A stretch of 28,944 nt of DNA, from the NCBI GenBank assembly GCA_029856525.1, contig JAHQXC010000007.1:1-28944 (forward strand). The letters are read 5' to 3'. Position numbers and translations under genes: made by a program. The notes beneath the pieces were generated by a model that was not told the origin of the DNA, did not search any database, and saw only the letters and a list, made by a program, of their open reading frames with translations. The DNA comes from Candidatus Odinarchaeia archaeon. Its GTDB lineage: Archaea; Asgardarchaeota; Odinarchaeia; Odinarchaeales; Odinarchaeaceae. This document shows, one piece after another, positions 24,410 to 28,929 of this stretch (its first letter is position 1; each line of letters opens with the position of its first letter).

Positions 24410-26233
24410 ATGTGCGGTATAGTCGGTGTTATCACAGCTGAAGGGGGGGTTGGGGATGTTCTCAGCAAAGCTCTTAAGAGATTAGAGTACAGGGGATATG
24501 ATTCGGTGGGTGTGGCTACAGTTAACGAGAATAAACTATATATTAAGAAGGATAAAGGGAAGATAGATGAAGTTAATGAGAGACTGAATTTAACTGATGT
24601 ACCAGGGCGGACCGGTATAGGTCATACTAGATGGGCCACTCACGGCGTCCCTTCTAAGAGAAACTCTCATCCTCACGGTGATTGTAAGAATAGACTAGCT
24701 GTGGTTCATAATGGGATAATAGAGAATTACAGTGAGTTAAAGGAGAGGTTAACACGTAACGGCCATATTTTCTTATCCGACACTGACACCGAGGTAATCC
24801 CCCATCTTATCGAGGAGAAGCTGAATTCAGGTTTAACCGGTTTCCACGCAGTTCTAGAGGCGGTTAAAGAGTTGAAAGGATCATACGCGATCGCCGTGTT
24901 AATAGCAGATCACCCTGATAAAATATACGTAGCCCGTAATGAGAGTCCGCTTGTGATAGGTGTGAAAAATAAAAATTACGTGTTCTGCGCCTCCGATATA
25001 CCGGCTTTTCTACCTATAACTAATCAGGTGATTTTTCTCTACGACGGGGAGGTTGCAGAGCTTTCCTTAGAAGGTGTTGTAATTAGAAATTTAAACGGTG
25101 AAGTCGTTGAACGCGAAGTTTTAGAAGTGGATTTAACACCGGAGATGGCTAAGAAAGGCGGTTTCCCGCATTTCATGCTTAAAGAAATATTTGAACAACC
25201 TAAAGCTTTAAAAAACACGCTCCGCATAGATGAGCGGAAGTTAATTGAAGTTTGTAAAATATTAAGTGAAAGTAACAGAATAGTATTCACATCAGCTGGA
25301 ACCTCATTTTATGCAGGTTTATGCGGTAAATATTTTTTAGCAAATATTTCTAGAACAGGGTCAGAAGCCGTCATATCCTCTGAATTCGATGAAATTATGA
25401 AAAATATTATCGATGAAAGAACAACCGTTGTTGCGATAAGCCAGTCAGGGGAAACCTCGGATACAATAAGCGCGGCTAAATATGCTAAACGATTCGGCGC
25501 TAAAATTATTTCGATAAGTAACACTGTAGGCAGCTCGCTTACTAGGCTAGCTGATGCTACAGTGTATACTCAAGCAGGCCCTGAGATAGGGGTGGCCGCT
25601 ACTAAAACTTTTCTAGTTCAACTGGGTGCTTTAAGCCTTATCAGCTCTAAACTAGCCGAGTTTAAGGGGGTTATAACCAGAGACGAGTATAAAACACTAT
25701 TAAATGATTTGAATACTATACCTGAAATAATCCAATTAATTCTTGATAAAACAGAAGGAGAGGTTAAAGCCTCTACAGAAGCCTATTATAATTCTACAAG
25801 CATCTTGTATTTGGGGAGAGGGATTAGCTCAGCTGTAGCTATGGAAGGCGCTCTTAAACTTAAAGAAATATCGTATATTCACGCTGAAGGATACGCTGCC
25901 GGTGAATCGAAGCACGGTCCAATCGCGCTTATAAGTACAGGTTTCCCCGTCGTGTTTGTAGCGCCTATGGATTCAACGCATAATAAGATAATAGGGAATA
26001 TTATGGAGATGAAGTCAAGGGGTGCTAGAATAATATCTGTGATAGAAGAGGGAGATGAAGAGATTAAGAGTATCTCAGATACGGTTTTCCGTGTACCTAA
26101 AACCTCCGATAATTTTTTTAAACAAATAGTATATATAGTGCCGCTGCAATTATTCGCATATTACATTGCAGTTAGAAAAGGCTTAGATCCTGATAAGCCT
26201 AGAAATCTAGCTAAAGCTGTTACAGTTGCTTAA
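24410..26233 (+). CDS. glmS: Glutamine--fructose-6-phosphate aminotransferase (isomerizing)
   Basis: MCGIVG, LEYRGYDS, GHTRWATHG, VHNGIIENY, SQSGETSDT, EGALKLKEISYIHAEGY, KHGPIAL, DKPRNLAKAVTV. Confidence 0.97.
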   Translation: MCGIVGVITAEGGVGDVLSKALKRLEYRGYDSVGVATVNENKLYIKKDKGKIDEVNERLNLTDVPGRTGIGHTRWATHGVPSKRNSHPHGDCKNRLAVVHNGIIENYSELKERLTRNGHIFLSDTDTEVIPHLIEEKLNSGLTGFHAVLEAVKELKGSYAIAVLIADHPDKIYVARNESPLVIGVKNKNYVFCASDIPAFLPITNQVIFLYDGEVAELSLEGVVIRNLNGEVVEREVLEVDLTPEMAKKGGFPHFMLKEIFEQPKALKNTLRIDERKLIEVCKILSESNRIVFTSAGTSFYAGLCGKYFLANISRTGSEAVISSEFDEIMKNIIDERTTVVAISQSGETSDTISAAKYAKRFGAKIISISNTVGSSLTRLADATVYTQAGPEIGVAATKTFLVQLGALSLISSKLAEFKGVITRDEYKTLLNDLNTIPEIIQLILDKTEGEVKASTEAYYNSTSILYLGRGISSAVAMEGALKLKEISYIHAEGYAAGESKHGPIALISTGFPVVFVAPMDSTHNKIIGNIMEMKSRGARIISVIEEGDEEIKSISDTVFRVPKTSDNFFKQIVYIVPLQLFAYYIAVRKGLDPDKPRNLAKAVTVA

Positions 26234-26243
26234 AGGTGAAATT

Positions 26244-26924
26244 ATGTTTTATACACCTATATCATCTAGGACAAGCCCGCCTTACGCTACACTAGGGATA
26301 ATCGCTATTAACGTAATTATATTTTTCATTCAAAGCTCTAGTCCAGTCTATTATAATTATTTCCTGTTAAATTTCGGATTGATACCTTATGAAATAGTTT
26401 CAGGAGTTAATCTTCAAACGCTAATAACATCTATGTTTCTGCATGGAAGCTTCATCCATATCTTCTTCAACATGTATATACTCTTAATATTCGGGCCTGC
26501 GGTGGAGAGAAAGTATGGGACAGCTCTTTTTATAATATTCTATATTTTCTGCGGTGTGGCGGCTGGATTAATACACTCCTATATTACATTTATATTTATG
26601 CCTGCTGAAGCGTACACGATCACAATAGGCGCGTCTGGGGCTATATTCGGGGTGATGGCGGCGTATGCCGTAAACTATCCGAACCAGTATCTGCTACTAT
26701 TCTTCTTCACACCTGTGAAAGCGTATATAGCTATTACATTATTCTTTGTTCTTGAAACAGTAATGGGTTTAGCTGGATTATTCGGAGCGGCTTCAAGTAT
26801 AGCTCATTTCGCTCATGTCGGAGGTTTTATCGCAGGGGTTTTATTCGCGCTTCTCTACCTCCGGTTCAAGGGACGGGGGCCTAAAATAAAAAAGGAGAGA
26901 GATATAGAGGTTATCTATCTTTAA
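26244..26924 (+). CDS. Rhomboid intramembrane serine protease
   Basis: FLHGSFIHIFFNM, catalytic GASGA, AHFAHVGG; ATG 26244 with SD GGTGA preferred over TTG 26226. Confidence 0.93.
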   Translation: MFYTPISSRTSPPYATLGIIAINVIIFFIQSSSPVYYNYFLLNFGLIPYEIVSGVNLQTLITSMFLHGSFIHIFFNMYILLIFGPAVERKYGTALFIIFYIFCGVAAGLIHSYITFIFMPAEAYTITIGASGAIFGVMAAYAVNYPNQYLLLFFFTPVKAYIAITLFFVLETVMGLAGLFGAASSIAHFAHVGGFIAGVLFALLYLRFKGRGPKIKKERDIEVIYL

Positions 26925-27453
26925 TAGTGTTCAACTGGCCGGTGACTTTTCTAGCGCCTATAGAGACAGGGATGGCAATAAGTCCGCCGACTGTGAATTG
27001 CACGACATTTAACGGGAGCTCGACTGCAGCTGCTGCTATACTAAATAGTAGGGATTCAACCATAAAGTAGCCTGTTATCATCCATGGCCCGGCGACGATG
27101 AAACACGCGATTAAATCTAGATAGGTAAACCGATCTCTTCTACTGATAAGACCTGCGAGAAAACCTTCAAGCCCCTTTATTATAAACGTCCAAGGGGAGT
27201 AGAAAGCATACCCTGAAATTATATCAGCTAAAGCTGATCCTAGACCGCCAGCCACTCCGCCTACTACTGGTCCGAATAATAGTCCTGAGAGCATAACAGC
27301 CGCATCTCCTATGTTAATGTAGCCGCTTGTAGCTGGTACTGGTATTTGAATGATAATGGTCAACGCTATTGTAAGAGCGGAAAACAAACCTGTCAACGCT
27401 GCTTGAACTGAAAGAGGGTAGGCCGGTGTTCTTGATTTAAAAAAGTTTTTCAT
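26911..27453 (-). CDS. ECF transporter S component, COG4720-like (PdxU/HmpT-type; substrate unproven)
   Basis: IPVPATSGYINIGDAAV...FGPVVGGVAGGLGSALADIISGY...PWTFIIKGLEG; ATG 27453 with SD GGTGG. Confidence 0.88.
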   Translation of the reverse strand: MKNFFKSRTPAYPLSVQAALTGLFSALTIALTIIIQIPVPATSGYINIGDAAVMLSGLLFGPVVGGVAGGLGSALADIISGYAFYSPWTFIIKGLEGFLAGLISRRDRFTYLDLIACFIVAGPWMITGYFMVESLLFSIAAAAVELPLNVVQFTVGGLIAIPVSIGARKVTGQLNTIKDR

Positions 27454-27464
27454 AAAACCACCAG

Positions 27465-27504
27465 TATTCAAGCAGATACTTGTATACAAGCTTTAACTTG
27501 AATA
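27465..27504. promoter_or_regulatory. Tandem palindromic operator, 2 x TWCAAG-N6-CTTGWA, over the S-component promoter
   Basis: TATTCAAG-cagata-CTTGTATACAAG-ctttaa-CTTGAATA has dyad symmetry over 40 bp. It abuts the minus-strand TATA TTTATATT (27508..27501), which has BRE-like GAAAAG upstream. Confidence 0.75.
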
Positions 27505-27513
27505 TAAACTTTT

Positions 27514-28929
27514 CTAAAGCAGAAAAGCCAGCTCCTCTAACGCGTTAAGAACTCTAATCCCTCTAGCAGTTATAGAATAATATTTGCGATTATCCCTCTC
27601 AGTGGAAGAGATTAAACCACGCTCCTCAAGCTCGTTAAGATGCTGATAAACAGCCTGCAAACTAACAGATTTAGACAGTGAATTCCAGAGAGAATATCCG
27701 TACGTTTCACCTAGAGAAATCAATCTTAATATTCTAAGCTTCAAACCGACTTTATCCATTACACTTATATTCTTCGAAAAACCGGATAAAGCCGCAAGTA
27801 AAAACTGGTCTTTCAACCCGCTTCCGGTAATAATACACGTAACATTATCATCTTTATTCAAAACCCCGCTTTCACCGAGTTTTTTAACAGCCGCTATAGT
27901 AGCACAGCTAGCCGTCTCCGCGTAAACACCCTCCTCTAAAGCTAAAACCCTCTGAGCTTCAGCGATATCCTTATCAGAAACCGATAAAGCCATACCGCCA
28001 GATTCTTTAATCGCTGATAAAGCAAGTTCACCGTTTAAAGGCTCTAAAACCAGTATCGCTAAAGCAATAGTCGAGCCGTTGCTAACCCGTTCTACCCTAG
28101 TCTTTTTTTCAAAAGCCTGGACGATAGGTGAACATGTTAATGATTGCACCCCGACTAGTTTAGGCAGCTGAAGAGATAAACCGAGATCGTAAAATTCTTT
28201 AAATCCCTTCCACAGAGAATATACGCTGCCTCCGTCTCCAACAGGCATTACAACGTAGTCGGGGACACCTATCTGCTCAATAATCTCATATGCGATTGTC
28301 TTCTGAGCCTCTATTATAAGCGGGTTGAGACCGGAAGTAGCAGGGTAAACGTTTTCACCTTTAAATCGCTCAATAACAAAGCGTATAGCTTCATCAACAG
28401 TCTCACCGTTATAGATAATATTAGCCCCGTACATCTTCATCTGAGCTAGTTTACCTATATCCACCCTTCTAGGAACAACTATCGTACTTTTAATATTCGC
28501 GCGCGCGCAATATGCGGCTACAGCTGCGCCTAGATTTCCATTAGATGCGCAAACCATCTCCTTAAAATTTAAGCTTAAAGCATGAGATATTAGCAGACTA
28601 GCAGCTCTATCTCTAAAAGAATTAGTGGGATTACGCGACTCATCTTTTAAAAACAAGTTATTTAAACCTAAAATCGCGCTCAGCCTGCTAGCCTTGAATA
28701 AAGGAGTCCTCCCCTCTCCTAAAGATACTCTAAACTCCGGGCTAATATAAGGTAGAAGCGAAGCATACCGCCAGAAAGAGTCTACATCTAAGAAAGAAAT
28801 ATTATCTTTGAGTTTAGAGCAATCACAGAAATAGATAAGCGGCGTGGAGCATACCTCGCAAAGTGAAATAACCCTCTCTGTAATATAGACTCTACCACAC
28901 TTAGGACATTTAAACTCCATAGAACCCAT
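27514..28929 (-). CDS. Threonine-synthase-like fold-type II domain lacking the catalytic Lys, fused to a C-terminal PadR wHTH; predicted transcription regulator
   Basis: Zn ribbon CPKC...CEVC, SLGEGRTPL, KDESRNPTNSF(R)DR, ASNGN, EAQKTIAYEI, PVGDGG, TGSGLKD; then LKLRILRLISLGETYGYSL...AVYQHLNELEERGLI...RKYYSITARG. Confidence 0.85.
   Translation of the reverse strand: MGSMEFKCPKCGRVYITERVISLCEVCSTPLIYFCDCSKLKDNISFLDVDSFWRYASLLPYISPEFRVSLGEGRTPLFKASRLSAILGLNNLFLKDESRNPTNSFRDRAASLLISHALSLNFKEMVCASNGNLGAAVAAYCARANIKSTIVVPRRVDIGKLAQMKMYGANIIYNGETVDEAIRFVIERFKGENVYPATSGLNPLIIEAQKTIAYEIIEQIGVPDYVVMPVGDGGSVYSLWKGFKEFYDLGLSLQLPKLVGVQSLTCSPIVQAFEKKTRVERVSNGSTIALAILVLEPLNGELALSAIKESGGMALSVSDKDIAEAQRVLALEEGVYAETASCATIAAVKKLGESGVLNKDDNVTCIITGSGLKDQFLLAALSGFSKNISVMDKVGLKLRILRLISLGETYGYSLWNSLSKSVSLQAVYQHLNELEERGLISSTERDNRKYYSITARGIRVLNALEELAFLL

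Follow-up and report, generated by a model that had tools for sequence, protein, structure and literature searches.

A lysine-less threonine synthase homologue fused to a PadR-type winged helix is a candidate vitamin B6-responsive regulator in Asgard archaea and Bathyarchaeia

Introduction

Does a protein with the fold of threonine synthase, an arginine in place of the lysine that should hold its cofactor and a DNA-binding domain at its C-terminus still make threonine, and if it does not, what might it do instead? The question is raised by a gene at one end of contig JAHQXC010000007.1 (C82 in our numbering) of a Candidatus Odinarchaeia archaeon; the entire 28.9-kb contig is the window analysed here, and it belongs to a genome of 1.32 Mb that is 93 per cent complete and whose nearest relatives are Odinarchaeia. 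The protein, referred to here as P0001, is very probably a ligand-sensing regulator of the adjacent gene, which encodes the S-component of an energy-coupling factor (ECF) transporter. The fuller statement, that P0001 is a repressor of vitamin B6 uptake that responds to B6 itself, is one towards which we lean with appreciably less assurance.

Results

Arginine replaces the Schiff-base lysine across a family of fusions

The gene and the parts of its product lie on the minus strand, close to the right-hand end of the window:

27514..28929, minus strand: P0001, a fusion of a threonine synthase (ThrC) fold with a PadR domain, 471 amino acids, from the open reading frame and its translation; candidate B6-responsive regulator
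28831..28914, minus strand: N-terminal zinc ribbon with four cysteines (C8, C11, C24, C27), all four invariant in the family
27823..28728, minus strand: threonine-synthase-like domain of fold-type II, the fold of enzymes that use pyridoxal 5'-phosphate (PLP), residues 68–369; Pfam PALP, 260 bits; proposed sensor domain
28612..28614, minus strand: codon AGA of Arg106 at the position of the PLP Schiff-base lysine (the plus strand reads TCT), placed by alignment to solved threonine synthases
27733..27822, minus strand: linker, residues 370–399; predicted local distance difference test (pLDDT) score of AlphaFold 2 below 50 at 370–392
27544..27732, minus strand: C-terminal PadR-type winged helix-turn-helix, residues 400–462; Pfam PF03551, 37.6 bits against a cut-off of 27 bits

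Arg106 sits within RNPTNSFRDRAAS and, in phmmer alignments, stands opposite the lysine of NPTGSFKDR in the threonine synthases of Aquifex (2ZSJ), B. subtilis (6CGQ) and M. tuberculosis (2D1F). The arginine codon that a first-pass annotation of the sequence had reported at the position of the Schiff-base lysine is therefore genuinely where it was said to be. That annotation had left room for a sequencing error or a strain variant, AGA being one transition away from AAA, and a decaying pseudogene would explain the codon away equally well. Both explanations are vanishingly improbable. Arginine occupies column 106 in 120 of 121 aligned proteins (close homologues of 47–85 per cent identity, the remaining one with serine). 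A scan with one genome per species returned 491 related stretches, and among the best 80 loci the column could be read in 78, with arginine in 76, serine in one and methionine in one. Since the residue recurs so widely in other species, it is not the product of chance or of error. The open reading frame is unbroken, and P0001 is highly conserved, at 85 per cent identity to its orthologue in the closed genome of Ca. Odinarchaeum yellowstonii. A Logan contig of run X1, the single public run containing the stretch, is identical over 28346–28900 at a word depth of ∼14; as this run is probably the source sample, the match represents an independent assembly of the same sample.

Fused and unfused relatives part at position 106

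Both the PALP and the PadR domain are found in all 120 of the best database homologues of P0001. Representatives of 1.84 billion clusters (50 per cent identity) were searched, and the best 150 hits were analysed together with the canonical paralogue described below. The contrast between PadR-fused and unfused homologues that the first-pass annotation had proposed to draw is a clear one: lysine is present at position 106 in 75 of 77 unfused relatives, whereas nearly all fused relatives are without it (Leu 19, Arg 15, Ile 14, Val 6, Met 4, Thr 4, Phe 3 and others). True fusions with lysine number two in this set, P0123 and P0127, and four long proteins (∼620 amino acids) misalign at the position.

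When column 106 is left out and a tree is built from the ThrC domain, the fusions form two clades: A, with Shimodaira–Hasegawa-like support of 99, is mostly arginine-bearing and includes P0001, and B, with support of 96, carries hydrophobic residues. The unfused, lysine-bearing proteins fall outside both. Some 66 positions are at least 80 per cent conserved in the unfused relatives, and among them position 106 alone combines invariance in those relatives (77/77) with replacement in both fused clades. These clades keep S104, F105, D107, R108, G131, N132, the glycine loop, T368 and G371–K373. To judge from this pattern of conservation, purifying selection is acting on a pocket that no longer catalyses; a pocket conserved after its chemistry has been abolished would be the signature of a sensor.

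One lineage bears lysine again. Among 43 fused loci examined from an evenly drawn sample of Asgard genomes, six (L148 and L150–L154, in genomes G044, G096, G055, G105, G060 and G014, with P0123 as representative) read NPTNSFKDR. They keep the fusion, the family-specific Asn103, a threonine at position 205 and an adjoining S-component gene, which is convergent and abutting. When the tree is rooted on the unfused proteins, the lineage (support 100) lies within a clade of 21 rows (support 96) whose other rows have arginine, bar one serine, and which is itself inside clade A (99). Because lysine is nested in this way within an arginine clade, an apparent Arg-to-Lys reversal, needing one transition, is the parsimonious reading of these sequences. 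The lineage does not rescue an assignment as threonine synthase, because the substrate arginine is missing there as well. The first-pass annotation had named lysine in close orthologues as an observation that would count against a pseudoenzyme; lysine does occur, but in a distant Asgard lineage (∼44 per cent identity between P0123 and P0001), and the close homologues hold to arginine (120/121).

A cofactor pocket retained and presumed substrate residues changed

The resemblance to threonine synthase is otherwise strong. P0001 matches Aquifex ThrC with an E value of 1.8e-63 (phmmer) and scores 221.6 bits against TIGR00260, for which the cut-off is 167.1 bits. The AlphaFold model (mean pLDDT 86.4, mostly above 90 in the ThrC-like domain, low in the linker at 370–392) finds threonine synthases as its best Foldseek matches, headed by B. 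subtilis ThrC 6NMX with a template-modelling score of 0.87 and a root-mean-square deviation of 2.0 Å; no solved protein with the fused ThrC/PadR arrangement was among those matches. The winged helix is modelled with confidence as helices 390–405, 411–417 and 424–436 and a beta hairpin at 440–453, and the YGY (410–412), W415 and YQHL (428–431) of this domain are invariant in the family. The zinc-ribbon cysteines are present in most unfused, lysine-bearing relatives too, so the ribbon is ancestral and lies outside the innovation.

The name under which the fusions are stored has a simple origin. The NCBIfam model NF004170 (PRK05638, ‘threonine synthase’, 442 positions) aligns its positions 2–442 with residues 6–465 of P0001 at 389 bits against a cut-off of 421, and because it spans the full fused architecture the fusions inherit the enzyme's name. 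Searched against 14 model genomes, the profile gave no match above its cut-off, and none of these 14 organisms appears to hold a member of the family.

Within the PLP pocket the other motifs are largely kept, as first annotated: ASNGN at 128–132, PVGDGG at 229–234 and TGSG at 368–371. The Asn-to-Asp change noticed in the glycine loop is present in P0001 as Asp232 but does not extend to the family, being confined to 6 of the 121 aligned proteins, an Odinarchaeial subgroup; the consensus of the family reads G-S-G-G-T, as is typical of a loop that binds phosphate. In the 447-residue arginine subtype (L108, L133–L142) the pocket has diverged further, with ASTGSFS for ASxGNxG (Asn132 to Ser) and TGSGFN for TGSGLK.

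The arginine of NPxRxEGQKT and the threonine of ASTGNTS, which we take from the T. thermophilus structures, as a lead only, to be the ligands of the phosphohomoserine phosphate, read Ile205 and Leu133 in P0001, and the family as a whole has Val, Thr, Ala or Ile at the first site and Leu or Met at the second. A canonical ThrC is encoded on contig C4 of the same genome (TIGR00260, 350 bits), complete with NPTGSFKDR, ASTGNTS, NPWRLEGQKT and PVGNCGN, and P0001 is a paralogue of this real threonine synthase. As judged by conservation in the 121-protein alignment, the PALP domain has no family-specific conserved lysine that could act as a substitute, K95, K160, K210, K241 and K373 all being common to canonical ThrC. 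Lys386 is conserved in the linker, which is modelled with low confidence, and its position could not be placed. With the Schiff-base lysine absent, the presumed substrate residues changed and a canonical ThrC elsewhere in the genome, the earlier view of the protein as a pseudoenzyme that should not be called thrC is well founded.

A homodimer of P0001 predicted with PLP included scored 0.78, against 0.00 for the best control; in calibration, 20 of 30 proteins whose solved structures are pairs attained that mark, as did 1 of 23 whose solved structures are single chains. At least 40 per cent of contacts are common to the runs, the pLDDT of the partner is 85–86, and the predicted interface lies in the ThrC domain (residues 70–82, 99–103, 139–145, 163–168, 327–336 and 370–373). 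Dimerisation of the ThrC-like domain is thus predicted, although likeness to ThrC dimers already solved may account for the score.

Linkage to an HmpT/PdxU2-type S-component and to pdxST

The gene that follows that of P0001 is the one that the protein would regulate:

26911..27453, minus strand: S-component of an ECF transporter, HmpT/PdxU2 type, 180 amino acids; PF07155, 131.6 bits; likely regulated target

It begins 60 bases downstream of the regulator gene on the same strand. The sole match of its product to a sequence in the PDB is chain S of 4HZU (E 3.1e-15), which is HmpT/PdxU2; pyridoxamine has been reported as a substrate of this protein, HmpT having originally been assigned to hydroxymethylpyrimidine (PMC4860826), and PdxU and PdxU2/HmpT are the B6 transporters of COG4720/PF07155 (PMC9997740). 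The NCBIfam matches of the S-component are weak, sub-threshold hits to TIGR04002 and to FolT-like and RibU-like families. Two EcfT genes are present in the genome.

The pairing is widespread. Of the 78 species-representative loci in which the regulator was found, 73 have an S-component gene downstream of it, which in 68 cases is on the same strand and no more than 400 bp away, and the linked loci span Odin-, Prometheo-, Hel- and Freyarchaeota as well as Bathyarchaeia. The pair recurs in Odinarchaeia, in Bathyarchaeia amid otherwise different neighbours, and in convergent orientation in another Asgard contig; at the Freyarchaeial locus L052 the S gene is likewise convergent, behind an open reading frame of 464 amino acids. 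In the Asgard sample an S-component lies within 4 kb of 8 of 12 clade A members and of 7 of 11 members of the 447-residue arginine subtype, and 18 of 20 members of clade B are oriented divergently to such a gene.

The two remaining clade B members adjoin pdxS-pdxT, one with isoleucine at position 106 and divergent (G015), the other with leucine, upstream and in the same orientation (G013; the protein is identical to P0132 over the aligned columns). An arginine-subtype member, G079, adjoins pdxS-pdxT as well. The pdxST genes make only PLP, and these neighbours therefore tie the family to B6 independently of what the transporter carries. No gene of the thiamine, riboflavin or threonine pathways was seen beside any member examined.

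A candidate operator at the S-component promoter

The short interval between the two genes contains both a putative promoter element and a palindrome:

27502..27508, minus strand: TATA-box-like TTTATAT of the putative S-component promoter, read from the sequence, 52 bp upstream of the ATG at 27453
27469..27500, no strand assigned: candidate operator, two CAAG-N6-CTTG sites sharing the palindrome CTTGTATACAAG (27479–27490), over the expected transcription start

From the stop codon of the regulator to the ATG of the S gene the interval reads AAAAG-TTTATAT-T, followed by both CAAG-N6-CTTG sites. The palindrome begins 1–2 bp past the TATA-like box and overlies the expected start of transcription. 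Nowhere else in the 1.32-Mb genome do two such sites stand in tandem, and the 14-bp core ACTTGTATACAAGT occurs at one mismatch or fewer only at this site. With up to two mismatches allowed, the genome holds three other sites, where shuffled versions gave 6–16; single CAAG-N6-CTTG sites number 12 genome-wide, against ∼16 expected, and the others are intragenic or away from promoters.

The core of the palindrome is conserved in the Odinarchaeial relatives L003, L004, L020 and L021. Dozens of Bathyarchaeia carry TAGTATAGTT-N2-AACTATACTA in the equivalent position, directly past a TATA-like box, and in each of five Bathyarchaeial genomes the sole exact copy is at the promoter of the S gene; a search of these five for additional operators gave a single site at two mismatches, no more than the reversed-pattern control. 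At seven Bathyarchaeial S-component promoters (L054, L060, L065, L082, L083, L085 and L099) the 22-bp element is present in two tandem copies. Autoregulation was also considered and rejected as a candidate: no palindrome with arms of at least 5 bp lies upstream of the L003 orthologue, and those upstream of other orthologues are unlike the operator.

Genes of B6 synthesis

Archaea have been stated in a survey to use the PdxST route (PMC9997740). PdxS (PF01680) was not found in the genome of the window, in the closed Ca. Odinarchaeum yellowstonii genome or in five Bathyarchaeial genomes, and it is present in 20 of 101 sampled Asgard genomes (sample G007–G106, at least 85 per cent complete), several closed genomes being among those without it. 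It is present in 5 of the 25 genomes that hold clade A; because PdxS is rare with or without the regulator, there is no specific anticorrelation between the two. The low frequency contrasts with the survey and suggests that B6 auxotrophy is widespread or that an unknown pathway is in use. The genome of the window has a single Phos_pyr_kin (PdxK/ThiD-type) match, which is at G000:C125:333-1058 and falls within an open reading frame of 450 amino acids, the size of archaeal ThiD-ThiN fusions.

Discussion

A mechanism may be proposed that would account for these features together. An archaeal threonine synthase would have been duplicated, and the copy would have lost the Schiff-base lysine and the residues that bind phosphohomoserine while retaining the rest of the PLP pocket and gaining a C-terminal PadR-type winged helix. 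The dimeric ThrC-like domain would then sense a B6 vitamer, most likely PLP, by binding it reversibly and without catalysis. With the vitamer bound, the dimer would place both winged helices on the palindrome past the TATA box and block transcription of the S gene; because that gene encodes an S-component of the HmpT/PdxU2 type, B6 uptake would be shut off in the replete cell. The identity of the ligand, repression as opposed to activation, and the direction of the ligand's effect are points that we infer.

There is little reason to think that P0001 is still an enzyme, whether a threonine synthase or some other PLP enzyme able to dispense with the canonical lysine or to use another in its place, with the winged helix as a mere add-on. 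The fold is intact (222 bits against TIGR00260, above the cut-off), the conserved Lys386 of the linker could not be placed structurally, and one nested lineage bears lysine again. Fold-type II enzymes, however, need the lysine both to form the internal aldimine and to serve as the base in catalysis, and across the fused family position 106 is occupied by Arg, Leu, Ile, Val, Met, Phe, Thr or Asn. The arginine and threonine presumed to be phosphohomoserine ligands have been replaced, no family-specific lysine stands elsewhere in the PALP domain, and the genome has its canonical ThrC, which together make continued catalysis very improbable. A regulator of the S-component gene that senses something other than B6 is a less remote alternative, though still an unlikely one. 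The ligand would be hydroxymethylpyrimidine or another thiamine precursor, riboflavin, an amino acid or a PLP-amino-acid adduct, and the S-component would be its importer. PF07155 takes its name from riboflavin transport, the sub-threshold matches of the S-component run to TIGR04002 and to FolT-like and RibU-like families, and hydroxymethylpyrimidine was the first compound assigned to HmpT (PMC4860826). The basic residue at position 106 in clade A, against a hydrophobic one in its sister clade, could reflect different ligands, and Asp232 might disfavour a phosphate. Against this stand a PLP-binding fold in which the residues that contact PLP are conserved except for the lysine, members of both clades (one of the Arg type included) beside pdxS-pdxT, a single solved match to HmpT/PdxU2 and not to RibU, ThiT, FolT or BioY, and the lack of thiamine, riboflavin or threonine pathway genes beside the members examined.

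It is also conceivable, if distinctly unlikely, that P0001 acts as a B6-responsive activator, or that its ligand-free form binds DNA and so activates uptake. The sign of regulation is not fixed by sequence, and bacterial PdxR activates pdxST at some promoters. Archaeal repressors that block the recruitment of polymerase classically sit just past the TATA box, whereas activator sites usually lie upstream of the B recognition element and TATA box. A palindrome placed 1–2 bp past a TATA-like box, over the expected start, is in the usual position of a repressor site, and a repressor is favoured for this reason.

Several considerations weigh against a B6-responsive repressor and should be set beside the evidence for it. 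The proposal is built wholly on comparative genomics, and the B6 specificity of the archaeal S-component is an extrapolation from HmpT/PdxU2, the sole PF07155 protein with a verified substrate. A ligand with a phosphate group might be disfavoured by the Asp232 that the Odinarchaeial proteins carry in the phosphate loop, and the existence of lysine-bearing orthologues shows that the role does not strictly depend on losing the lysine. Of the clade A members in the Asgard sample, about one-third have neither an S-component gene nor pdxST within 4 kb. Because no second operator was found in the genome, there is no regulon against which the site could be cross-checked, and only 15 bp of contig (28930–28944) precede the ATG of the regulator gene, which puts the regulator's own promoter beyond the window. 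The absence of PdxS was considered as evidence for an auxotrophy linked to the regulator and was rejected, as the gene is missing from 81 of 101 Asgard genomes regardless.

To our knowledge no regulator of vitamin B6 homeostasis has been described for Archaea, and full-text literature searches found no published description of a ThrC-PadR or ThrC-type B6 regulator in archaea. The PLP-dependent regulators of the MocR type are stated to be absent from Archaea (PMC5320631), and a regulatory niche is therefore open there. In function the nearest counterpart of the proposed regulator is bacterial PdxR, with other MocR proteins (GabR, TauR), one-component factors in which a domain derived from a PLP enzyme senses PLP and is joined to a winged helix that binds DNA at repeated boxes. 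Among the genes of PdxR regulons are pdxST, pdxK and pdxU, the last for a transporter (PMC5320631), and genes of these kinds are found linked to the ThrC-PadR family. In construction the two differ throughout. MocR proteins have an N-terminal GntR winged helix and a domain like the fold-type I aminotransferases that keeps its lysine, whereas P0001 has an N-terminal fold-type II, ThrC-like domain without lysine and a C-terminal PadR winged helix; the order is reversed and neither domain is homologous, PALP and PadR being all that Pfam finds in P0001.

With threonine synthases (TIGR00260; 2ZSJ, 6CGQ/6NMX, 1UIM) P0001 shares the fold, 35–39 per cent identity, a zinc ribbon such as many archaeal ThrC proteins have and a predicted interface in the ThrC-like domain, as expected for a dimer of the ThrC type; it departs from them in the change of Lys to Arg, of the substrate-phosphate Arg to Ile and of the Thr of ASTGNTS to Leu, and in its linker and winged helix. 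With the PadR regulators (PF03551) it shares a winged helix above the Pfam threshold and a palindromic candidate operator. Classical PadR proteins, however, have the winged helix at the N-terminus, a short helical dimerisation domain and a ligand held between subunits, whereas in P0001 the winged helix is C-terminal and an enzyme-derived domain of 370 residues would provide both dimerisation and sensing. NF004170 spans the same architecture, but P0001 falls below its cut-off, and the name of the model is that of an activity that the lysine-less fusions almost certainly lack.

Taken more broadly, the family would be the first of B6-responsive transcription factors in Archaea, a non-covalent PLP sensor derived from ThrC that functionally replaces PdxR in Asgard archaea and Bathyarchaeia, with residue 106 (Arg or Lys as opposed to Leu, Ile or Val) tuning which vitamer is sensed, or in what way; we regard this wider claim as somewhat probable, and as slightly less so than the specific one made for P0001. 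If the proposed reading holds, hundreds of archaeal genes labelled ‘threonine synthase’ are misnamed (491 matches in species-representative genomes for this subtype alone), and reconstructions of metabolism in Asgard archaea and Bathyarchaeia count ThrC too often and overlook a switch of B6 uptake. The family would also be a clean natural case of an enzyme turned into a sensor by the removal of one catalytic residue, its cofactor pocket kept. Dependence on the uptake of B6 would then look widespread in these uncultured lineages (PdxS in 20 of 101 Asgard genomes), which would be useful to know for their cultivation.

Other features of the locus

The 3' end of the S-component gene overlaps a convergent rhomboid protease gene (26226–26924, plus strand) by 14 bp (26911–26924), an arrangement kept in L003 and L004. 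In these same two relatives a gene for a transporter of the SBF family lies upstream of the regulator on the same strand, and the MCM genes upstream of the regulator locus in L003, L004 and L006 contain one or two inteins. Elsewhere in the window, the genes examined between 16221 and 26233 look unremarkable by Pfam and include those for a RACo-like activase, an Elp3-like radical SAM/GNAT protein, a LysX-like ATP-grasp protein, EF-1alpha and GlmS.

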